A DNA stretch of 64,000 nucleotides from an uncultured Candidatus Rokubacteria bacterium (GTDB lineage Bacteria; Methylomirabilota; Methylomirabilia; Rokubacteriales; CSP1-6): NCBI GenBank assembly GCA_963771355.1, contig CAVYTA010000006.1, forward strand, positions 1,632,001 to 1,696,000, written 5' to 3'. The stretch's first letter is position 1, and each line of letters starts with the position of its first letter. Made by a program: the position numbers and the translations under genes. The notes below the pieces were generated by a model. That model did no database searches, had not been told where the DNA came from, and saw only the letters and a program-made list of their open reading frames with translations. This document shows, piece by piece, positions 46,882 to 59,128 of this stretch.

Positions 46882-46964
46882 GAGGTCGCGCGTGGGGACT
46901 TTCGCCCCCGATGGGCGCGCCTGACGCGGAGCCCGCTGAGTCACCGAGAAAGGAACGGGCGGAC

Positions 46965-48797
46965 ATGAAGGAGTTCGAGAAGAAACCGAACCCGAGCCGC
47001 GAGCCTGCCTCCGAAGGCATGAAGGGGCTCTCCAAGTTCCTTCCCATGACCGACTCGAATTACCGCCGGCGTCTCACCGAGTACGAGGTGCAGGTGCAGG
47101 ATCTCCAGGCCTACGTGCGGTCGCTCGAGGCCGAGTCGGTACGGTTGCGCAAGAAGGTCGAGGACGCGCCAAAAGAGGCGATGGTCCTCGAGAACAAGCT
47201 GCGCGAGGCCAACCGCCAGCTGGTCCAGTCGTTCAATCAGAATGAGAAGCTCGTCAACACCCTCTACGAGGCGCGCGAGCAGATCGCCTCGCTTCGCGAG
47301 GAGGTCGACAAGCTCTGCGCGCCGCCGTCCACCTACGGCGTCTACCTGTCCGTCAACGAGGACGCCACCGTCAACATCCTCTCGCAGGGCCGCAAGGTGA
47401 AGGTGAACCTGCACCCGTCGCTCAAGGTCGAGGACATCAAGCCCGGCCAGGAGCTCGTGCTCAACGAGGGGCTCAACGTCGTCGAGACGGCCGGCTACGA
47501 GATCCAGGGCGAGGTCGTCATCCTCAAGGAGGTCCTCGACGAGGCCCGCGCGGTGGTGACCCTGCGCGCGGACGAGGACAAGGTCGGCATCATCGCCGAT
47601 CCCCTCCGTACGGAAAAGCTCAAGGTCGGGGATCACATCCTGATGGACAGCAAGAGCGGCTACCTGCTCGAGAAGCTTCCCAAGAGCGAGGTGGAAGACC
47701 TCACCCTCGAGGAAGTCCCGGACATCAGCTACGAGAATATCGGTGGGCTGCAGAACCAGCTCGAGACGATCAAGGACGCGGTCGAGCTTCCCTACCTCTA
47801 CTCGGACTACTACAAGGAGCACCACCTCGCCCCGCCCAAGGGCGTGCTGCTCTACGGCCCTCCCGGTTGCGGCAAGACCATGATCGCCAAGGCCGTCGCC
47901 AATAACCTCGCGGCCCGTATCTCGGAGAAGCGCGGGGAAAAGGTCAAGGGCTTCTTCCTCAACATCAAGGGCCCCGAGCTGCTCAACAAGTACGTGGGCG
48001 AGACGGAGCGCAAGATCCGCGAGATCTTCATCAAGGCCCGCGAGAAGGCCGCCGAGGACGTGCCGGTGGTGGTCTTCTTCGACGAGATGGACGCGCTCTT
48101 CCGCACGCGGGGGTCCGGCATCTCGTCCGACGTCGAGACCACCATCGTGCCTCAGCTCCTCGCCGAGATCGACGGCGTCGAGCATCTCCGGAACGTGATC
48201 GTGATCGGCGCGTCGAACCGGCAGGATCTCATCGACCCCGCCATCCTGCGGCCGGGCCGGCTGGACGTGAAGATCAAGATCGAGCGGCCGGACGGACCGG
48301 CGGCAGTGGAAATCTTCAACAAGTACATGACGACCGAGCTACCCATCCACCAGGACGAGATACGCCAGAACGGCGGCGACAGCCAGGGCGCGGTGGACCG
48401 CATGATCGCCGCCACCGTGGAGGAGATGTACAATCTGGGCGATGACAACCGCTTCCTGGAAGTCACCTACGCCAACGGCGACAAGGAGGTTCTCTACTTC
48501 AAGGACTTCTCGTCGGGGGCCATGATCGAGTCCATCGTGCGCCGGGCCAAGAAGCTGGCGCTCAAGCGCTATATCCAGACCGCCGAGAAGGGCATCAAGA
48601 ACGAGGACCTGATCAATGCCGTCCGCGAGGAGTTCAAGGAGAACGAGGATCTCCCCAATACCACCAATCCCGACGACTGGGCCAAGATCGCCGGCAAGAA
48701 GGGCGAGCGGATCGTGTACGTGAAGCCCCTCATGGGCGAGACGAAGGAAAAGAAGCGCGACGTCGAGAAGATCATCAACACCGGCCAGTATCTGTAG
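46965..48797 (+). CDS. arc: Proteasomal AAA+ ATPase ARC/Mpa
   Basis: N-terminal coiled coil, [14 protein letters not shown], and the C-terminal GQYL proteasome-docking motif. Confidence 0.96.
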
Positions 48798-48834: not shown

Positions 48835-48914
48835 CCCTCCCCCTCACCCTCCGCCCCGCCGTGGTCGGGGTGGTGTCCGCGGAGGGCGAGCCACTGTCCG
48901 CGACCGGGGGGTTC

Positions 48915-50414
48915 ATGGCGCTTCCGAAGGTAATGGGGATCGAGACCGAGTACGGCATCACCGTCAAGAATCAGCCCGACTTCAACCCGATCCTCTCCTC
49001 GCTCCTGCTGATCAACTCCTACGAAACCTATCGGTCCTCGCGTATCCGCTGGGACTACGAGGCGGAGAGCCCGCTGCGCGATGCGCGCGGCTTCGAGTAC
49101 GCCGAAGACAAGGACGTGCCCTCGAAGGAGGAGTCGCGGCTCATCAACCTGATCCTCTCCAACGGGGCACGGTTCTACGTGGACCACGCTCACCCGGAGT
49201 ACTCCTCGCCGGAGACGACCAACCCGCGGGACTGCGTGATCTGGGACCGGGCCGGGGAGCGCGTCCTCGACCTCGCGCGCACCCGGGCGGAGGCGGTGTC
49301 GCCGCCCGAGCAGCGGATCCTCATCTACAAGAACAACACCGACTCCAAAGGCAACTCCTACGGCACCCACGAGAACTACCTCATGGACCGCAAGGTGCCC
49401 TTCGCCCGCATCGTCCAGCACCTGCTTCCCTTCTTCGTGAGCCGGCAGATCTACTCCGGGGCGGGCAAGGTGGGAGCGGAGAACAACACCGAGCACTGCG
49501 AATTCCAGATGTCACAGCGGGCGGATTTCCTCGAGACCGAGGTGGGGCTGGAGACCATGCACAGCCGGCCCATCATCAACACCCGGGATGAGCCGCACGC
49601 GGATCCCGAGAAGTACCGGCGGCTGCACGTTATCGTGGGCGATGCCAACATGAGCGAGATCTCCACCTACCTCAAGTGCGGCACCCTCGCCCTGGTGCTG
49701 GGGCTCATCGAGGACGACGTCATCGACAAGGATTTCTCGCTCGAGAATCCGGTCCTCAGCTATCGAAATGTCTCGCGCGACCTCTCCTGCCGGGAGACGG
49801 TCAAGCTCAAGGACGGCCGCGAGCTGACTCCGGTGGAGATCCAGTGGGAGTTCTTCGAGCAGGCCCGCCGGCACTACGATCGCAAGGCGGCCGAACCGTG
49901 GGCGGCGGACATCCTCACCCGCTGGGAGTCGATGCTCACGCGCCTGGGCCGTGATCCGATGTCCTGCGACCGGGAGATCGACTGGGTCATCAAGTACCAG
50001 CTCATCGAGCGCTACCGCGCCAAGCACGCGATCTCCTGGTCGGACTCGCGGGTGGCCATGATCGATCTCCAGTACCACGACATCCGGCCCGGCAAGGGGC
50101 TCTTCTACAAACTGGAGGAGTCGGACGCGGTGGACCGGCTGGTCACCGAGGACGAGGTGACGAAGGCCATCTACGACCCGCCCAAGGACACGCGGGCGTA
50201 CTTCCGGGGGATGTGCCTGCAAAAATACTCCGACGAGGTGGTGTCGGCCTCGTGGGACTCGGTGATCTTCGACCTCAAGGAAGGCCCGCTGAAGAAGATC
50301 TTCATGCTCGAGCCGCTTCGCGGCACGGAGGCTCATGTGCGGCAGCTCTTCGCCGACTCGCCCACTGCGGCGGACCTGCTGCGCAACCTCGGCAAACCCT
50401 CCGGCGACGTATGA
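48915..50414 (+). CDS. dop: Pup deamidase/depupylase Dop
   Basis: MGIETEYGI, Dop-loop WDYEAESPLRDARGF, NGARFYVDHAHPEYS and NTRDEPHAD motifs. Confidence 0.95.
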   Translation: MALPKVMGIETEYGITVKNQPDFNPILSSLLLINSYETYRSSRIRWDYEAESPLRDARGFEYAEDKDVPSKEESRLINLILSNGARFYVDHAHPEYSSPETTNPRDCVIWDRAGERVLDLARTRAEAVSPPEQRILIYKNNTDSKGNSYGTHENYLMDRKVPFARIVQHLLPFFVSRQIYSGAGKVGAENNTEHCEFQMSQRADFLETEVGLETMHSRPIINTRDEPHADPEKYRRLHVIVGDANMSEISTYLKCGTLALVLGLIEDDVIDKDFSLENPVLSYRNVSRDLSCRETVKLKDGRELTPVEIQWEFFEQARRHYDRKAAEPWAADILTRWESMLTRLGRDPMSCDREIDWVIKYQLIERYRAKHAISWSDSRVAMIDLQYHDIRPGKGLFYKLEESDAVDRLVTEDEVTKAIYDPPKDTRAYFRGMCLQKYSDEVVSASWDSVIFDLKEGPLKKIFMLEPLRGTEAHVRQLFADSPTAADLLRNLGKPSGDV

Positions 50415-51226
50415 CCCCCGAGCGCTGGCAGGCTGCCTTCTCCAACTACTCGACGTCGAGCTTTTCCGAGTATCTCCGGCACGCCGCTCCGCACCTGCTC
50501 CCGGCCACCGAGCCCGCCGGCCGGCCGGCCGCGTCCGACAGCCAGGCGGCTGGGGTGCCGCACGGCACCACCGTCCTCGCCCTGCGCTACCGCGACGGCG
50601 TGGTCATGGCGGGCGATCGCCAGGCGAGCGAGGGCTACCAGGTGGCCCACCGGCGTATCGAGAAGCTGTTCAAGTCGGACGACCTGTCCGCGGTGGGAAT
50701 CGCGGGCGCCGCCGGCCCTGCCATGGAGATGGCGCGCCTGTTCCAGACCGAGCTGGAGCACTACGAGAAGGTGGAGGGCGAGAACCTCTCCCTCGACGGC
50801 AAGGCCAACCGGCTGGGCGCGATGATCCGCGCCAATTTGCCCATGGCCATGCAGGGCCTGGTGGTCGTCCCCATCTTCGCCGGCTTCGACGAGCGCGCGG
50901 GGGTGGGCCGCCTGTTCAAGTACGACGTCACCGGAGGGCGGTACGAGGAGACGGACTACTTCGCCCAGGGCTCCGGCGGGAAAGACGCGCGCGACTCGTT
51001 GAAGAAGCGCTTCCGCCGGGACATGAGCCGGGACGAGGCGGTGCAAGCGGCGCTGGAGGCCCTCCTCGACGCCGCCGACGAAGACCTCGGCACCGGGGGG
51101 CCCGACTTCCACCGGGGCATCTTCCCCACCGTCAAGACCATCAGCCGCTCCGGGATCACCGACCTGGCGGACGACGACGTCCGTCGGTATCTCGAGGCGA
51201 TTCTCTCCGACCGGGGACGCAACTGA
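50411..51226 (+). CDS. prcB: 20S proteasome beta subunit
   Basis: Propeptide ending HG|TTVLAL (catalytic Thr1), plus AGDR and GSGG motifs. Confidence 0.96.
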   Translation: MTPERWQAAFSNYSTSSFSEYLRHAAPHLLPATEPAGRPAASDSQAAGVPHGTTVLALRYRDGVVMAGDRQASEGYQVAHRRIEKLFKSDDLSAVGIAGAAGPAMEMARLFQTELEHYEKVEGENLSLDGKANRLGAMIRANLPMAMQGLVVVPIFAGFDERAGVGRLFKYDVTGGRYEETDYFAQGSGGKDARDSLKKRFRRDMSRDEAVQAALEALLDAADEDLGTGGPDFHRGIFPTVKTISRSGITDLADDDVRRYLEAILSDRGRN

Positions 51227-51330
51227 TGCCGCTGCCCTACTACGTGTCCCCCGAGCAGATGTGGCAGGGCGAGGCGCAGCCGCAGGCGAGCCGAGCGAAC
51301 CGTGAAGATGCGGCCGGAGGTCCGGCCTGA
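51226..51330 (+). CDS. 34-aa mini-ORF duplicating the PrcA N-terminus (MPLPYYVSPEQMWQGEAQPQASRANREDAAGGPA)
   Basis: TGATG overlap with the prcB stop and with the prcA start. The first 12 codons encode the same residues as PrcA. Confidence 0.55.
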   Translation: MPLPYYVSPEQMWQGEAQPQASRANREDAAGGPA

Positions 51331-52022
51331 TGCCGCTGCCGTATTACGTTTCGCCCGAGCAGATGATGAAGGACAAGGCGGAGTATGCCCGCAAGGGCAT
51401 CTCCCGCGGGAAGGCCATCGTCGCCATCGAGTACCGCGACGGCATCCTCCTGGTGGCAGAAAATCCCTCCACCCTGCTCCACAAGATCTCGGAGATCTAC
51501 GACCGCATCGCCTTCGCCGGCGTAGGCAAGTACAACGAGTTCGAGAACCTCCGGGTGGCGGGGGTGCGGCACGCCGACGTCAAGGGTTACTCCTACTCGC
51601 GCGGCGACGTGAGCGCCAAGTCCCTCGCCAACGCCTATTCCCAGGGGCTCGGCAACATCTTCACCCAGGACATCAAGCCCTTCGAGGTGGAGGTGCTGGT
51701 GTGCGAGGTGGGGGACGGCGACGCCGGCAAGAACGAGATCTACCACATCCTCTACGACGGCACCATCGAGGACGAGAAGAACTATGCCGCCATGGGTGGC
51801 CAGTCGGACGAGATCCGCCGCTATCTGAAGGAGAATTTCAAAGAGGGCCTCGACCTCTCTGCCGCCATCCAGCTCGGAGTGCAGGCCCTCATGGTCACCC
51901 AGAACAAGAGCCTCACCGAGCGCGACCTCGAGGTCGCGGTCCTCGACCGCACCAAGGAGCGCCGGAAGTTCCGCCGCATTCCGGCCGAGGTGCTGCATCA
52001 GCTGCTCACCCCGGGCGCCTGA
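51330..52022 (+). CDS. prcA: 20S proteasome alpha subunit
   Basis: PYYVSPEQMMKDKAEYARKGISRG, KISEIYDRI and LEVAVLDR motifs. Confidence 0.96.
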   Translation: MPLPYYVSPEQMMKDKAEYARKGISRGKAIVAIEYRDGILLVAENPSTLLHKISEIYDRIAFAGVGKYNEFENLRVAGVRHADVKGYSYSRGDVSAKSLANAYSQGLGNIFTQDIKPFEVEVLVCEVGDGDAGKNEIYHILYDGTIEDEKNYAAMGGQSDEIRRYLKENFKEGLDLSAAIQLGVQALMVTQNKSLTERDLEVAVLDRTKERRKFRRIPAEVLHQLLTPGA

Positions 52023-52079: not shown

Positions 52080-53435
52080 ATGAAGCGCCGGATCTTCGGG
52101 ATGGAGAACGAATACGGCTTGACCTGCACCCTCAACGGTCAGCGCCGGCTCTCGCCCGACAACGTCGCCCGCTACCTCTTCGAGAAGGTCATTCCCGGCG
52201 CCCGCAACGCCAACGTCTTCCTCGAGAACGGGGCCCGCCTGTACCTCGACACCGGCTTCCACCCGGAGTACGCCACCCCCGAGTGCGACGACATCGTCGA
52301 GCTGGTGACCCACGACAAGGCGGGCGAGCGGATCGTCGAGGACCTCCTCCATCAGGCGGAGAAGCGGCTGCGCGAGGACGGGATCTCCGGCAACATCCTC
52401 CTCTTCAAGAACAACACCGATTCCGCCGGCAACTCCTATGGCTGCCACGAGAACTACCTGGTGAGCCGCGACGTGTCGTTCCAGCGGCTGGCCGAGGGGC
52501 TCATCCCCTTCTTCGTGACCCGCCAGATCTTCGCCGGCGCGGGCAAGGTGCTCCAGACGCCGCGGGGCTTCCACTACTGCCTGTCGCAGCGCGCCCAGCA
52601 CATCTGCCAGGAGATCTCCGGCGCCACCACCTCCTCGCGCTCCATCATCAACACGCGCGACGAGCCGCACGCGGACGCCGAGAAGTACCGCCGCCTGCAC
52701 GTCATCGTGGGCGACTCCAACATGTCCGAGGTGGCGACCTACCTCAAGGTGGGCACCACCGCCCTCATCCTGGACATGATCGAGGATGGCCACTTCGACA
52801 AGGACTACAGCCTCCAGTCCCCCGTCCAGGCCATCCGGGACATCAGCCACGACGCCACTCTGCGGGAAACGGTACGGCTCAAGGACGGGCGCTCCATCAC
52901 CGCCCTCGATCTCCAGACCGAGTACCTGGAGGCCGCCACCCGCTACGTGGCCGCCATCGACGCCGATCCGGTCACCCGCGACGTGCTCGCGCGCTGGACC
53001 ACGGTCATCGAGGCCCTGCACACCGACCCCATGAAGCTCGAGCGGGACGTGGACTGGGTCATCAAGTACAAGATGATCGACGCCTACATGACCAAGCACC
53101 GGCTCTCCTGGCGCGACCCCAAGGTGTCCCTGATGGACCTGCAGTACCACGACATCCGTCCGGATCACGGCCTGTACTTCCGCCTCCTGCAGCGGGACTT
53201 CATCGACCGCATCACCACCGATGAGGAGATCGAGCGCGCCAAGCACCTGCCGCCCCAGACCACGCGCGCGCGGCTCCGCGGCGAGTTCATCCGCCAGGCC
53301 AACCTCAAGGGGAAGGACTATCGCGTGGACTGGGTCTACCTCAAGCTCAACGACCCAGAGCGCGAGACCATCCTCTGCAAGGATCCGTTCCAGAGCCACG
53401 ACGAGCGGGTGGAGCGGCTGATCCGCTCCTTCTAG
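52080..53435 (+). CDS. pafA: Pup-protein ligase PafA
   Basis: [45 protein letters not shown] and KDPF motifs. Confidence 0.95.
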
Positions 53436-53497
53436 CCGGCGTCGCGCGCGAGTCGGGCGCGCCGTGCGTGACCGTGTCCTGGCGGTACAATAGAAGC

Positions 53498-55714
53498 GTG
53501 AGCCTCCCGCCCGCCACCGTCCGTACACTCGTCACCGGGGAGCACGGTGACCCCTTCGCAGTGCTTGGTCCCCACGCAGATGCGGACGGGAGTCTCGTGA
53601 TCCGCGCCCTCCTTCCCGACGCCGGGAGCGTGCAGGTGATCCCGCGCGAGGTCGCCGAGCCGGTCCCGCTGCGGCGCCTGCACCCCCACGGCCTCTGGGA
53701 GGGGCGAGTTTCCGTGCCCGCGGGAACGGCGCCCGCCTCATTCGTCTACCAGCTCCGCGTCACCGATTCCGCCGGGCACGCCGTCGACGTCGAGGATCCC
53801 TATCGCTTCCCGCCCAGCCTGACCGATCTCGATCTCCACCTCCTGGGCGAGGGCACCCATTACCGCCTCTACGACAAGCTGGGCGCCCATCCGGCGCGAG
53901 TGTCCGGCGTGGACGGCTACCGGTTCGCGGTGTGGGCTCCCAATGCGCGCCGGGTGAGCGTGGTCGGGGACTGGAACAGCTGGGACGGCCGGCGTCACCC
54001 CATGCGCCTCCACCCCGCGAACGGCATCTGGGAGCTCTTCGTCCCCGGCGTGGGTGACCAGGTCCGCTACAAGTTCGAGATCCTCTCCGCCTCCGGCGCC
54101 CCCCTCGCGCTCAAGGCCGATCCCTTCGCTTTTGCCTTCGAGCCCGACACGCCGCGCACCGCCGCCGTCACCTGTCCCCTGGACCGCCGCGCCTGGGGCG
54201 ATCAGGCATGGATGGCCGAGCGCGGCCGGCGCCATGCGCTGGGCGAGCCGCTCAGCATCTACGAGGTGCATCTGGGATCGTGGCAGCGCGTGCCGGAAGA
54301 GGGCAATCGCTTTCTCAGCTATCGCGAGCTCGCTCCCCGCCTCGCCGACCACGTGACCGCGCTGGGCTTCACCCACGTCGAGCTGCTCCCGGTGATGGAG
54401 CATCCTTTCTATGGCTCCTGGGGCTATCAGACCATCGGCTACTACGCGCCGACGCGGCGCTACGGCGAGCCCGACGACTTCATGGCCTTCGTGGACCACC
54501 TGCATCAGCGGGGGATCGGCGTCATCCTCGACTGGGTGCCCGCGCATTTCCCCCAGGACCCGCACGGGCTCGCGTACTTCGACGGCACTCACCTCTACGA
54601 GCACGCGGACCCGCGGATGCGCGAGCACCCCGACTGGGGCACGCGCGTCTTCAACTATGGCCGCACCGAGGTGGCCAACTTCCTCCTCGGCAATGCGCTG
54701 TTCTGGCTCGACCGCTACCACCTGGACGGGCTCCGCGTGGACGCGGTGGCGTCCATGCTCTACCTGGACTACTCGCGCAAGCCCGGCGAGTGGATCCCCA
54801 ACGTCCACGGCGGGCGCGAGAACCTCGAAGCAATCGCCTTCGTCAAGCGGCTCAACGAGGTGGTGTACGGAGCGCATCCGGACGTGCTCACGGTGGCGGA
54901 GGAGTCCACCTCCTGGCCGCAGGTCTCGCGCCCCGTCTACCTCGGCGGCCTCGGCTTCGGGCTCAAGTGGAACATGGGCTGGATGCACGACATGCTCGAG
55001 TACTTCCGCCACGAGCCGGTGCACCGCAAATTCCACCACAACCAGCTCACCTTCGGCATGCTCTACGCGTGGTCGGAGAACTTCGTCCTGCCGCTCTCCC
55101 ACGACGAGGTGGTCCACGGCAAGGGCTCGCTCATCGGCAAGATGCCGGGCGACGAGTGGCAGCGCTTCGCCAACCTGAGATTGCTCTACGGGTTCATGTG
55201 GGCCTATCCGGGGAAGAAGCTGCTCTTCATGGGCGGCGAGCTCGGCCAGCCCGCGGAGTGGAATCACGACCGCAGCCTGGACTGGCACCTCCTCGAAGCG
55301 GGGCCCTATCATCGCGGCCTCCAGCGGCTGGTCGCCGACCTCAACCGGCTCTACCGAGGCGAGCCCGCGCTACACGAGGGGGACGCCGATCCCGCGGGCT
55401 TCCGCTGGATGGATTGCTCGGACTCCGACCAGAGCGTGGTGGCGTTTTGCCGCTTCGCGCGGGAGGAGCGGGGCGTCGTCCTCTGCGCCGCCAATTTCAC
55501 GCCCGTCGTCCGCGAGCGGTATCGGATCGGCGTGCCGCGCGCGGGCTACTACGTCGAGGCGGTCAATACCGATAGCGAGCACTACGGCGGGAGCAATGTC
55601 GGGAATGGCCCGGGCGTGCACAGCGAGCCCGTCCCCTGCCACGGCCAGCCCTGGTCGGTGAGCCTGACCCTTCCGCCCCTGGGTGCCCTCCTGCTCCGCT
55701 GGGCGGGTCCCTGA
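53498..55714 (+). CDS. glgB: 1,4-alpha-glucan branching enzyme
   Basis: [27 protein letters not shown] and [10 protein letters not shown] motifs. Confidence 0.97.
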
Positions 55715-55718
55715 GGCG

Positions 55719-57869
55719 ATGGCGCCCCCTGCGCTGCGCGTCCGCCCCGGCACCCCGTATCCTCTCGGCGCCACCCCCGACGGCGAGGGCACGAACTTCG
55801 CCCTCTTCAGCGAGCATGCCACCGCGGTCGAGCTCTGCCTTTTCGACCCCGCCGAGCCCAGCCGCGAGATCGCGCGGCTGGCCGTCGAGGAGCGCACCGA
55901 CCAGGTCTGGCATGTCCACGTGTCCGGTCTCCGTCCCGGCGCCTTCTACGGTTATCGCGTGCACGGCCCCTACGCGCCCGCCGCCGGCCACCGGTTCAAT
56001 CCGGCCAAGCTGCTCCTCGACCCCTATGCGCGCGCCCTCGCAGGCAGCGTGGCGTGGGACGACGCCCTCCTGGGCTACCGGGCCGGCGACCCCGCCGGCG
56101 ACACCGCGCCGGACGGGCGGGACAGCGCCCCGTTCGTGCCGAAGAGCGTGGTGATCGACCCCGCCTTCGACTGGCAGGGCGACCGCCGGCCCGGCACGCC
56201 CTGGCACCGCACCGTGATCTACGAGGCCCACGTGAAGGGAATGACGGCGCGACACCCGGACGTGCCGGCGGCCCTTCGAGGCACCTATGCGGGCCTCGCC
56301 GCGCCTCCCGTGCTCGACCACCTGCGCGGGCTCGGCGTCACCGCGGTCGAGCTCCTGCCCGTGCATCACGCGGTGCCCGAGCGGGCCCTCGCCGCGCGCG
56401 GGCTCACCAACTACTGGGGTTACAACTCCATCGGCTACTTCGCCCCCGACGCGCGCTTCGCCTCCGGCGGCGTGCGCGGGGGGCAGGTCGCTGAGTTCAA
56501 GTCCATGGTGCGCGCGCTTCACGGGGCCGGCCTCGAGGTCATCCTGGACGTGGTCTACAATCACACCGCCGAGGGGAGCCATCGCGGCCCCACGCTTGCC
56601 TTCCGCGGCATCGACAACCACGCCTACTACCGGCTCGATCCCGCGCATCCCGGTCGCTACATGGACTACACCGGCTGCGGCAACACACTCAACACGGTGC
56701 ACCCGCGCACGCTCCAGCTCGTGCTGGACAGTCTGCGCTACTGGGTGCGGGACATGCACGTGGACGGCTTCCGCTTCGACCTCGCCACCGCGCTGGCCCG
56801 CCGGCCGCACGCCTTCGACCGGTTCTCGGCGTTCTTCGCGGCCATCCAGGCGGATCCCGTGATCTCCCAGGTCAAGCTCATCGCCGAGCCCTGGGACCCC
56901 GGGGAGGGCGGCTACCAGGTGGGGAATTTCCCGCCCGGATGGGCGGAGTGGAACGGCCGGTACCGCGACACGTTGCGGCGCTTTTGGCGGGGCGACTCCG
57001 GAGTAATGGGGGAGCTCGGCTCCCGGCTCACCGGGTCGAGGGACCTCTACGACAAGGACGGGCGGCTCCCCTACGCCAGCGTGAACTTCGTCACCGTCCA
57101 CGACGGCTTCACCCTCGCCGACCTGGTGGCTTACGAGCACAAGCGCAACGCCGCGAACGGCGAGGACAACCGGGACGGCACCGACGCCAATTTCTCCTGG
57201 AACAGCGGGGCGGAAGGACCGAGCGACGATCCGGCCATCCAGGCCCGGCGCGAGCGGCAGGCGCGCAACTTCCTCGCCTCCCTGCTCCTGTCGCAGGGCG
57301 TGCCCATGCTCTCGCACGGTGACGAGTCGGGGCGCTCCCAGGAGGGCAACAACAACGCCTACTGCCACGACGGGCCGCTCACCTGGCTCGCCTGGCCCCC
57401 CCCGGACGCCGCCCGGCTCGACTTCACACGCCGGCTCATCGCGCTCCGTCTGGCCGAGCCCGTCTTCCACCGGCGGCGCTTCTTCCAGGGCCAGGAGCGG
57501 CCGGGCGCCGCCGGGAAGGACCTCGTCTGGCTGCGTCCCGACGGCAAGGAGATGGCCGACGAGGACTGGAACGACCCGGCGGCGCGGGCGCTCGGCCTCC
57601 GCCTGGCCGGCGACGCCATCGCGGAGCCGGACGAGCGGGGCGACCCGGTGTCGGGCGCTACTTTCATGCTGCTCTTCAACTCGCAAGACGCGCCGGTGCC
57701 GTTCATCCTGCCCGTCCCCCCGGACGGCGGCCGCTGGCAGCTCGTGCTCGATACCCGTGACTGGTCTCCGCCCGCCGCCTCGGCCCCCATTGCCGGCGGC
57801 GAAGCGTATGCGCTGGAGAGTCGCTCGCTCGCCGTCCTTCGACTGGAGCGAGAAGGAGAGTCACCGTGA
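55719..57869 (+). CDS. glgX: Glycogen debranching enzyme
   Basis: NYWGYN, DVVYNHTAEG, DGFRFDLA, IAEPWD and HDGFTL motifs. Confidence 0.97.
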   Translation: MAPPALRVRPGTPYPLGATPDGEGTNFALFSEHATAVELCLFDPAEPSREIARLAVEERTDQVWHVHVSGLRPGAFYGYRVHGPYAPAAGHRFNPAKLLLDPYARALAGSVAWDDALLGYRAGDPAGDTAPDGRDSAPFVPKSVVIDPAFDWQGDRRPGTPWHRTVIYEAHVKGMTARHPDVPAALRGTYAGLAAPPVLDHLRGLGVTAVELLPVHHAVPERALAARGLTNYWGYNSIGYFAPDARFASGGVRGGQVAEFKSMVRALHGAGLEVILDVVYNHTAEGSHRGPTLAFRGIDNHAYYRLDPAHPGRYMDYTGCGNTLNTVHPRTLQLVLDSLRYWVRDMHVDGFRFDLATALARRPHAFDRFSAFFAAIQADPVISQVKLIAEPWDPGEGGYQVGNFPPGWAEWNGRYRDTLRRFWRGDSGVMGELGSRLTGSRDLYDKDGRLPYASVNFVTVHDGFTLADLVAYEHKRNAANGEDNRDGTDANFSWNSGAEGPSDDPAIQARRERQARNFLASLLLSQGVPMLSHGDESGRSQEGNNNAYCHDGPLTWLAWPPPDAARLDFTRRLIALRLAEPVFHRRRFFQGQERPGAAGKDLVWLRPDGKEMADEDWNDPAARALGLRLAGDAIAEPDERGDPVSGATFMLLFNSQDAPVPFILPVPPDGGRWQLVLDTRDWSPPAASAPIAGGEAYALESRSLAVLRLEREGESP

Positions 57870-59128
57870 CCCACATCGACGAATTCGAGTCCGATCTCCA
57901 TCGGACCGTCCTGTCCCAGCTCGACCGCGTCGCCGGGCTGCTGAACCTCGATCCGGACATCCACGTCCGGCTCCGCGCCCCCCGGCGCGCCCTGGTCGTG
58001 TCGATCCCCGTCCGCATGGATACTGGACGCACCCAGGTGTTCACCGGGTACCGGGTCCATCACTCCACCGTCCTGGGTCCCACCAAGGGCGGGCTCCGCT
58101 ACGACGAGGACGTCAGCCTCGGCGAGGTGTCCGCGCTGGCCATGCTCATGAGCTGGAAGTGCGCGCTCATGGGGCTCCCTTACGGCGGGGCCAAGGGCGG
58201 GGTCCGGTGCAATCCGCGAGCGATGTCGCTGGCCGAGCGCGAGAGCCTCACGCGGCGCTATACCGCCGAGATCATCCTCATGATCGGCCCCGACCTCGAC
58301 ATCCCTGCCCCCGACCTTGGCACCGACGAGCAGACCATGGCGTGGATGATGGACACGTACTCCATGACCCAGGGCAAGAGCGTTCCGGGCGTGGTGACGG
58401 GCAAGCCGCTGATCGTGGGCGGGTCGGCCGGCCGGCGGGAGGCCACCGGGCGCGGCATCGTCTATTGCCTCTATCAGGCCGCCCGCCACATGGGACAGGA
58501 GCTACGCGGCAAGACGGTGGTGGTCCAGGGCTTCGGCAATGTGGGCGGGGTGGCAGCGCGGCTCCTGTGGCGGGACGGCGCGGTGGTGACGGGAGTGAGC
58601 GACGTCAAGGGCGCGATCTGGAATCCCAATGGCTTCGACATCCGGCAGCTCGAGGCCCACATCGCCGAGACCGGCAGTGTGGTGGGCTTCCCCGACGCGG
58701 AGCGCCTCGACAACGCGGAGCTGCTCGAGCGCCCCTGCGACATCCTCATCCCCGCTGCCGTCGGCTCCCAGATCCATGCCGGCAATGCCGACCGTATTCG
58801 CGCCCACGTCGTCGCCGAGGGCGCGAACGGGCCCACCACCCCGGAGGCCGACGTCATCCTCCGCGACCGCGGGATCATCGTGATCCCCGACATCCTGTGC
58901 AATGCGGGGGGTGTGGTCGTCTCCTACTTCGAGTGGGTGCAGGGCCTCCAGTACTATTTCTGGAAGGAGAGCGAGATCACCGCGCGACTGCAGGAGGTGA
59001 TGGCCCGCGCCTTCAACCGCGTCTGGAACCTCGGCCAGAAGGAAGGTACCGATCTCCGCACCGCCGCGCTGATGGAAGGGGTCCAGCGCGTGGCCGAGGG
59101 CTACCGGGTCCGCGGCCTCTATCCCTGA
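57866..59128 (+). CDS. gdhA: Glu/Leu/Phe/Val (glutamate) dehydrogenase
   Basis: GPTKGGLRY, GGAKGG, DIPAPD, QGFGNVG and EGANGPTT motifs. Confidence 0.92.
   Translation: MTHIDEFESDLHRTVLSQLDRVAGLLNLDPDIHVRLRAPRRALVVSIPVRMDTGRTQVFTGYRVHHSTVLGPTKGGLRYDEDVSLGEVSALAMLMSWKCALMGLPYGGAKGGVRCNPRAMSLAERESLTRRYTAEIILMIGPDLDIPAPDLGTDEQTMAWMMDTYSMTQGKSVPGVVTGKPLIVGGSAGRREATGRGIVYCLYQAARHMGQELRGKTVVVQGFGNVGGVAARLLWRDGAVVTGVSDVKGAIWNPNGFDIRQLEAHIAETGSVVGFPDAERLDNAELLERPCDILIPAAVGSQIHAGNADRIRAHVVAEGANGPTTPEADVILRDRGIIVIPDILCNAGGVVVSYFEWVQGLQYYFWKESEITARLQEVMARAFNRVWNLGQKEGTDLRTAALMEGVQRVAEGYRVRGLYP

Follow-up and report, generated by a model that had tools for sequence, protein, structure and literature searches.

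A mini-ORF made of a hairpin repeat and a copy of the prcA start separates prcB from prcA in a genus of Rokubacteria

Introduction

Mycobacterial interspersed repetitive units (MIRUs), as two reviews present them, are repeats of 40–100 bp that occur in about 40–50 copies per genome, lie between operon genes, and contain ORFs whose ends overlap the neighboring genes, an arrangement believed to maintain coupling (PMC3184786; PMC12548453). According to the same reviews, they insert at start codons, and coupling of their ORF to the neighbors probably limits harm (PMC12548453; PMC3184786). REP sequences, which fall into GTAG and CGTC superfamilies, are described in a further paper as imperfect hairpins of high copy number that are located mostly just 3' of stop codons and are sometimes inside or fused to ORFs (PMC3733652). 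One of the two reviews on MIRUs also treats upstream "ribosome delivery" ORFs of short length, as well as bicistronic designs, in which a coupled ORF delivers ribosomes and the peptide is not the purpose (PMC12548453).

Here, we describe an insert at the junction of the proteasome genes prcB and prcA in an uncultured Candidatus Rokubacteria bacterium, a member of a soil-dwelling genus. We found no description of the repeat family that fills it in Rokubacteria in the literature searched, with most subscription papers beyond the reach of the search, and nothing on the insert itself in the literature searched by listings.

Results

Organization of the proteasome locus

The window, a 64,000-nt stretch of one contig of the genome studied (G000), contains five genes of an actinobacterial-type Pup–proteasome locus, arc, dop, prcB, prcA, and pafA, all on the plus strand. 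The proteasomal ATPase gene arc/mpa (46911..48797; PF00004, PF17758, PF16450) is followed by a Pup-ligase family gene (48861..50414; PF03136), likely dop by position, whose stop codon overlaps the prcB ATG (ATGA). The beta subunit is encoded by prcB (50411..51226; PF00227) and the alpha subunit by prcA (51330..52022; PF00227; PDB 1q5q and 3h6f); the top PDB match of PrcA is 1q5q, a Rhodococcus alpha subunit (E 2e-75). A second Pup-ligase family gene (52080..53435; PF03136) is, again by position, likely pafA. Downstream of it, genes for glycogen branching, debranching, and glutamate dehydrogenase run in the same direction (53468–59128). The pup gene is located outside the operon, ~300 kb away (G000:C6:1379748-1379936; L043 1498-1698, minus strand), and codes for a 66-aa Pup with a GGE end; it lies between a dCTP deaminase-like ORF and a small zinc-ribbon ORF, both named from their translations.

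Between prcB and prcA there is a mini-ORF of 34 codons (105 nt, 51226..51330, plus strand) with the product MPLPYYVSPEQMWQGEAQPQASRANREDAAGGPA, followed by a stop. As reported in the initial annotation of this DNA, TGATG overlaps connect it to the prcB stop at one end and to the prcA start at the other, and its first 12 codons specify the PrcA N-terminus. The copy of the prcA start that lies upstream (51223..51261), comprising CTG and codons 1–12, and the downstream copy, which is the true prcA start (51327..51365), are 39 nt long and mismatch at 51237, 51240, 51246, and 51249, all of them synonymous third positions. An SD-like GGGGA (51213..51217) is found within the 3' end of prcB, 8 nt 5' of the mini-ORF ATG, and CCTCC is present at the 3' end of the host 16S rRNA. 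The middle of the mini-ORF (51268..51297), translated as GEAQPQASRA, was overlooked by the initial annotation and is a copy of a REP-like hairpin repeat found genome-wide. An 18-nt spacer (51298..51315) follows, which diverges by 22–56% between lineages and is constant in length except in G002. The prcA SD, GGAGGT, is at 51316–51321, where it had been annotated, and it does lie within a hairpin (51312..51327), but the 2-nt loop assigned to this hairpin cannot close; the predicted fold has 6 bp in the stem and AGGU as a 4-nt loop, and its strength varies among relatives. Overall structure of the 51200–51380 segment is not unusual (z = +1.3), and an Rfam scan of 50900–51700 returned a single chance match (E 0.65).

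The initial annotation had called for a check against misassembly, and the junction passed it: Logan contigs assembled from independent runs cover the insert, either singly or as overlapping tiles, with 0–2 differences. X2 contigs match 51133–51296 with no differences and 51267–51380 with one, an X1 contig matches 51270–51443 with none, and single contigs cross 51140–51290 in X3 (0 differences), X7 (0), and X11 (1). A contig from X15, an RNA-library run, matches 50900–51299 with two differences, which is not proof of transcription. No joint that skips the 104 nt was listed in the contigs of four runs. Two X3 records, record 6 (the downstream copy, 0 differences) and record 8 (prcB end, copy, prcA), were left unused as possible short-word contig artefacts. 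The notion that the duplicate is an assembly artefact could draw on one insert-bearing metagenome locus, L035, which was excluded as likely chimeric (in L035 1-470, unrelated sequence joins a short prcB end, with the cassette after it). Against it stand the independent contigs, which agree with the junction, and diverged versions of the junction in four other species-level genomes; we consider the artefact ruled out, its probability being negligible. The duplicate insert at prcB–prcA is real, genus-restricted, and old.

Junction states in related genomes

Three states of the junction are found in the eight genomes of the genus: five have the duplicate together with the repeat, two have the repeat only, in an in-frame TGATG–TGATG mini-ORF, and one has an empty junction. 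Among the first five, G000, G003, and G005 share the 105-nt frame, the G002 version is 2 nt longer and off frame, and G001 has, 5' of the cassette, a 20-nt remnant that forms a six-codon TGATG–TGATG ORF of its own. In G007 and G004 (the latter read by eye), the repeat occupies a 78-nt TGATG–TGATG ORF and only 9 nt are duplicated. In G006, prcB and prcA meet in a TGATG overlap with no insert, and G023, G010, and G013 outside the genus show the same. A metagenome scan gave eight loci, six with the duplicate, one with the repeat only, and L035, dropped for the reason given above. The repeat-only mini-ORFs of G007, G004, and L032 have TGATG at both ends and contain no peptide copy.

A pattern for the prcA start matched 110 of 159 family genomes; two adjacent copies occur in only five, all within the genus, and an adjacent second copy is absent in 102 of 102 matching genomes outside it. 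A scan of 185,579 species returned four junctions with the duplicate, the window's own genome possibly having been left out. The family tallies include three unpublished genomes, G016, G030, and G067, used nowhere else. In 20 further family genomes, the two genes overlap by –1 in six and are separated by gaps of 4–136 nt, some with other inserts, in 14; thus, tight prcB–prcA coupling is not obligatory.

In loci L150, L152, L148, L154, L014, and L026, which belong to other genera, different repeat-like inserts of 34–166 nt are seen at prcB–prcA, without duplication. The junction is also carried by L039 and L041, records titled Verrucomicrobiia and Nitrosocosmicus; the titles look mislabelled or the bins mixed.

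The repeat family

The 5.5-Mb genome contains 43 copies of the repeat at ≤3 mismatches, and a 1 Mb Markov control contains none. Partners in the stem covary (C-G 28, G-C 7, G-A 7, and C-C 1). The 30-nt core occurs in 40 clusters, where the usual unit is ~40–65 nt long; at prcB–prcA, the unit measures 77–104 nt. An exact 29-mer of the repeat is present in 45 of 159 family genomes, including eight of eight in the genus, 21 of 21 in g46, and four of four in g17. Most copies lie shortly 3' of a stop codon; a stop triplet is within 10 nt of the repeat in 58 of 99 clusters in congeners, a set that was built from the matches listed, with 22 further matches outside it and the prcA site left out. In G000, 21 of 37 copies have a direct neighbor and none of the 37 an inverted neighbor within 200 nt. 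The tetranucleotide GTAG is found 5' of six of 37 copies in G000 and eight of 151 in congeners; GATT, GCTT, and GTTT together are commoner, and the prcB–prcA copy has GCAG. No Y1/RAYT transposase (PF01797) was found in G000 (99.8% complete), G004, G005, or G006; such a gene was found in G141 and G178, two of five records examined, at loci without the repeat. Several copies are predicted to be translated, either as short chained ORFs or through in-frame insertion.

A few individual copies were inspected. Near position 178845 of G000:C1 (minus strand), the repeat appears to be in frame within a coding gene, ~20 codons past the start, and adds ~24 residues. Near position 1006244 of G000:C6 (minus strand), a coupled mini-ORF made of two repeats in tandem lies between genes that we take, from their motifs, to be guaA and dnaE, and the predicted N-terminus of the downstream gene comes from the second half of the repeat. 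By eye, the base 5' of the hairpin seems to covary with the base 3' of it (T with G, G with A), and mini-hairpins of the form GC-GNA-GC or GCC-GNA-GGC occur in each half of the longer unit.

Gene-end duplications next to repeats

Only one of 56 repeat clusters in G000, the one at prcB–prcA, is flanked by a long duplication; since its score is 27 and the next best is 12, the association is not due to chance. Among the same 99 clusters of five congeners, there is likewise one such case, L101 (219-330; G001:C39), in which a perfect 31-nt duplication of the C-terminus of an ABC permease lies beside the repeat. Here, the unit is 65 nt long and contains a second copy of the final seven codons of the permease gene, stop included. 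The resulting mini-ORF starts at an ATGA overlap, runs through the repeat, and ends in DPRIRFR and a stop, as the permease itself does; it is followed by another short ORF, which stops 3 nt 5' of the next gene. The matching site of G000 is an empty TGATG overlap. This mirror case indicates that the repeat family can, rarely, duplicate an adjacent gene end into an in-frame copy of the terminal peptide, without any link to the proteasome.

Reading frame and coupling

The relay frame, with TGATG at both ends, is kept in six of seven insert-bearing congeners. It was maintained across length changes of –27, –3 (L037), and +20, and was broken once, by +2 (G002). A hand estimate at one-in-three odds puts such retention at ~0.05, which, in a small sample, may be regarded as suggestive. 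The calculated energy of the SD hairpin is –13.0 kcal/mol in G000, –5.8 kcal/mol in its nearest relative, and –4.1 to –11.9 kcal/mol in relatives generally; the energy of opening the start site is 9–17 kcal/mol with the cassette vs. 11.5–15.4 kcal/mol at empty junctions. Because the frame is kept while hairpin strength is not conserved and opening energies are like those of empty junctions, the mini-ORF would be a relay that makes the insertion tolerable rather than a tuned switch. An earlier suggestion, that ribosomes on the mini-ORF melt the hairpin and set alpha:beta stoichiometry, thus fits in its coupling part and is weak in its melting and stoichiometry part. Likely, the mini-ORF relays ribosomes from prcB to prcA, so that the two genes stay coupled.

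The relay arrangement was also sought at other copies of the repeat, where automatic gene calls on both sides were available for 24 of 40 clusters. An apparent enrichment against a frameshift-only null (14 of 23 vs. 10.1 expected) was lost under a random-frame null (14 vs. 11.5 expected, P 0.08, not significant); without the focal site and one intragenic site, 12 of 21 junctions conform vs. 10.8 expected (P 0.32).

Alternatively, the entire cassette may be a selected regulatory device, whose second SD, SD hairpin, and relay ORF adjust mRNA stability or the ratio of alpha to beta subunits, with no role for the peptide. We consider this unlikely, though several observations point to it. A 14-nt tail, GGAGGTCCGGCCTG, is nearly invariant (0–1 differences in 14) beside the diverging spacer, the insert has been retained in seven of eight congeners despite its flanking direct repeats, and the SD hairpin of G007 is different yet strong (–11.9 kcal/mol). 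On the other hand, hairpin energies span –4.1 to –13.0 kcal/mol and opening energies overlap with the values at empty junctions, G006 has no insert and the frame of G002 is broken, and in other genera the same junction holds unrelated inserts or gaps.

Divergence of the two copies

The downstream copy, the true prcA start, has no amino-acid change in any lineage compared. For the upstream copy, five lineages were selected so as to leave aside the variant alleles described below, and in each of the 10 pairwise comparisons the same pattern holds: 0 of 22 positions 1–2, 2–5 of 10 third positions, and 4–10 of 18 spacer positions differ. When variable sites of upstream alleles are counted (hand-entered counts, about nine alleles), positions 1–2 contribute 2 of 22 and position 3 contributes 7 of 10 (Fisher p 0.001). 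Pooled over seven lineages, the upstream copy differs from its own prcA by 13 synonymous changes, one non-synonymous change, and one deletion, where neutrality predicts 62% non-synonymous; the corresponding P is ~1e-4, the lineages not being independent.

The initial annotation took the synonymous-only difference between the copies as a sign of selection on both peptides. The synonymous excess is real, but the inference of selection is confounded, since the two copies exchange sequence. At third positions, the upstream copy lies closer to its own prcA (distance 2.2) than to the prcAs of other genomes (3.3; permutation P 0.044, n = 6). In G003, the copies are identical and have lineage-specific codons, and private codons are common to both copies in G005 and L037. 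The duplicate-bearing genomes do not form one clade (AU test p ~1e-100), so loss or exchange has occurred. Between G000 and its near twin L037, a short-read metagenome contig that is possibly chimeric, there are six synonymous changes in prcA codons 1–12 vs. a flanking background of 1.6% (P 3e-5), a cluster that would be expected from block replacement. Conversion appears to be rare in G000 and L036, because four and six synonymous differences, respectively, persist there between the copies, with no amino-acid change. By a parsimony reading, these differences fit one ancestral pair of unlike alleles and are not independent counts.

Three alleles of the upstream copy alter the peptide. P4L is found in G001 and L038 and is absent in the near-identical L031, one codon is lost in L037 (YV to F), and Y5D is found in one X11 contig at depth 8. 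These changes, which could only have arisen upstream, are predicted to be damaging. In the alignment of related junctions that had been recommended earlier, the copy is kept in five of eight congeners and includes non-synonymous alleles. Taken together, the upstream copy appears more conserved than free DNA and less conserved than a gene, and the synonymous excess seems to be partly unexplained by exchange. The simplest account would be refreshing from working prcA alleles; perhaps there is added weak, second-order selection, if the upstream copy occasionally takes over as the working prcA start. Neutrality alone is no explanation for the survival of the cassette between 39-nt direct repeats across such divergence, which keeps the regulatory and peptide alternatives alive.

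The N-terminal residues of alpha subunits form the gate of the 20S particle. One option is that the mini-ORF encodes a functional gate-mimic micropeptide; its first 12 residues would then be a decoy during assembly or gating of the 20S particle. The copy covers residues that match the 7–8 N-terminal residues missing from the truncated alpha subunits used in vitro (PMC6466877). The low variability of positions 1–2 in upstream alleles points the same way, as does the fact that L036 and G000 hold unlike copies without amino-acid change. Nevertheless, this proposal of the initial annotation is weakened. The copy is missing in three of eight congeners and, as an adjacent second copy, in every matching genome outside the genus; P4L, Y5D, and the codon deletion fall in the gate segment; residues 25–30 are not conserved; the end of the copy appears to coincide with the start of the repeat, not with a structural boundary; and the permease case shows that the same repeat makes such copies without a proteasome link. 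A functional micropeptide is, in our estimate, quite unlikely. We give an equally low probability to domestication, in which a repeat-born coupled minigene, caught at its birth in one genus, would supply free gate peptide one-to-one with proteasome subunits and so modulate 20S.

Bacteriophage T4 gene 60 is a known case of translational bypass. A similar process at prcB–prcA would take ribosomes from the upstream CAG-AUG directly to the matching codons of the downstream copy, so that the upstream copy encodes the real PrcA N-terminus. Matched codons do lie on both sides of a hairpin, and the amino-acid constraint on the upstream copy would be accounted for. However, the take-off codon has no following stop, prcA has its own SD, it is the downstream copy that is constant in amino acids while the upstream one has the three variant alleles, and no 104-nt skip is seen in the contigs of one RNA-library run. 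Bypass is extremely improbable.

Elements of the SXT/R391 family integrate at prfC and rebuild the 5' end of their target gene. By analogy, an integrase-driven element could use the junction as its attachment site, target the prcA 5' end, and bring a recoded start, the 104 nt being its remnant. Synonymous-only divergence, a hotspot of change confined to codons 1–12, and the non-monophyly of the duplicate agree with such a history. Yet viral contigs gave 0 matches to the prcA-start site, no lone distant copy occurs in the 159 family genomes (the two matches of G010 are full prcA genes on separate contigs), and the insert consists of a common repeat, not an element end. We therefore hold this possibility to be very unlikely. 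From the earlier suggestion of an element scar that rebuilt the prcA start, insertion and duplication stand; the element does not, as neither an integrated element nor a phage-borne copy of the site was found, and its place is taken by a non-autonomous 30-nt repeat.

Discussion

The anatomy, distribution, and allele patterns of the insert are established; translation, coupling, and conversion are what we propose on their basis. On balance, we favor the view that the insert is probably a MIRU-like coupled minigene, in which a duplication linked to the repeat produced the copy of the prcA start and recombination keeps refreshing it, the mini-ORF likely serves as a ribosome relay, and the peptide is probably a by-product. 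First, the repeat would have inserted at an ancestral TGATG junction and duplicated 9 nt, as is seen in G007 and G004. Next, the repeat would have been duplicated in tandem together with the SD and the prcA start, and once the first repeat was lost, a prcA start would have remained upstream; the 20-nt remnant retained in G001 may be a trace of this step, as it fits a duplication of just these parts and subsequent deletion of the first repeat. Ribosomes finishing prcB would reinitiate at a native start context, cross the repeat, and stop on the prcA ATG. Finally, gene conversion and unequal or cross-species recombination between copies would renew the upstream copy from working prcA alleles, which may be why most differences between the copies are synonymous.

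The series seen within the genus, from an empty overlap through a repeat-only minigene to a minigene with a copied gene terminus, with a remnant intermediate, shows a way in which small repeats can move into coupled operons and give rise to in-frame peptides that copy the ends of neighboring genes; such entry is a route to new small ORFs. It also calls for caution, since synonymous-only divergence between a gene start and a nearby copy can stem from recombination. Should the peptide prove functional, it would represent a new mode of bacterial proteasome regulation, and if the gate-mimic reading were true, an operon-encoded self-mimic micropeptide.

Among known systems, SXT/R391 elements share with our locus a gene-start duplicate with synonymous differences, but no integrase, element, or phage copy of the site was found here. 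Ribosome delivery ORFs differ in that the present mini-ORF is repeat-derived, lies between two structural genes, and opens with a copy of the downstream gene's N-terminus. Like REP sequences of 20–40 bp, the repeat is palindromic, extragenic, and of high copy number (30 nt, 43 copies); unlike many REP families, it forms no inverted dimers (0 of 37), and it is not accompanied by a Y1/RAYT transposase in G000 or three congeners; it also seems mostly to lack the GTAG tag (present at 6 of 37 copies). The likeness to MIRUs as described in the reviews extends to size and copy number (a 30-nt core in 40 clusters) and to an internal ORF that overlaps the flanking stop and start, a feature present at prcB–prcA and not enriched across the repeat family. 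The differences are a –1 (TGATG) overlap here vs. –4 spacing in MIRUs, direct repeats of 9 or 39 nt vs. a tetranucleotide, the copying of 12 codons of the target gene, and a host phylum other than that of Mycobacterium. Because it has neither the 4-nt duplication nor the –4 spacing, we do not file the insert as a MIRU, though it would work like one.
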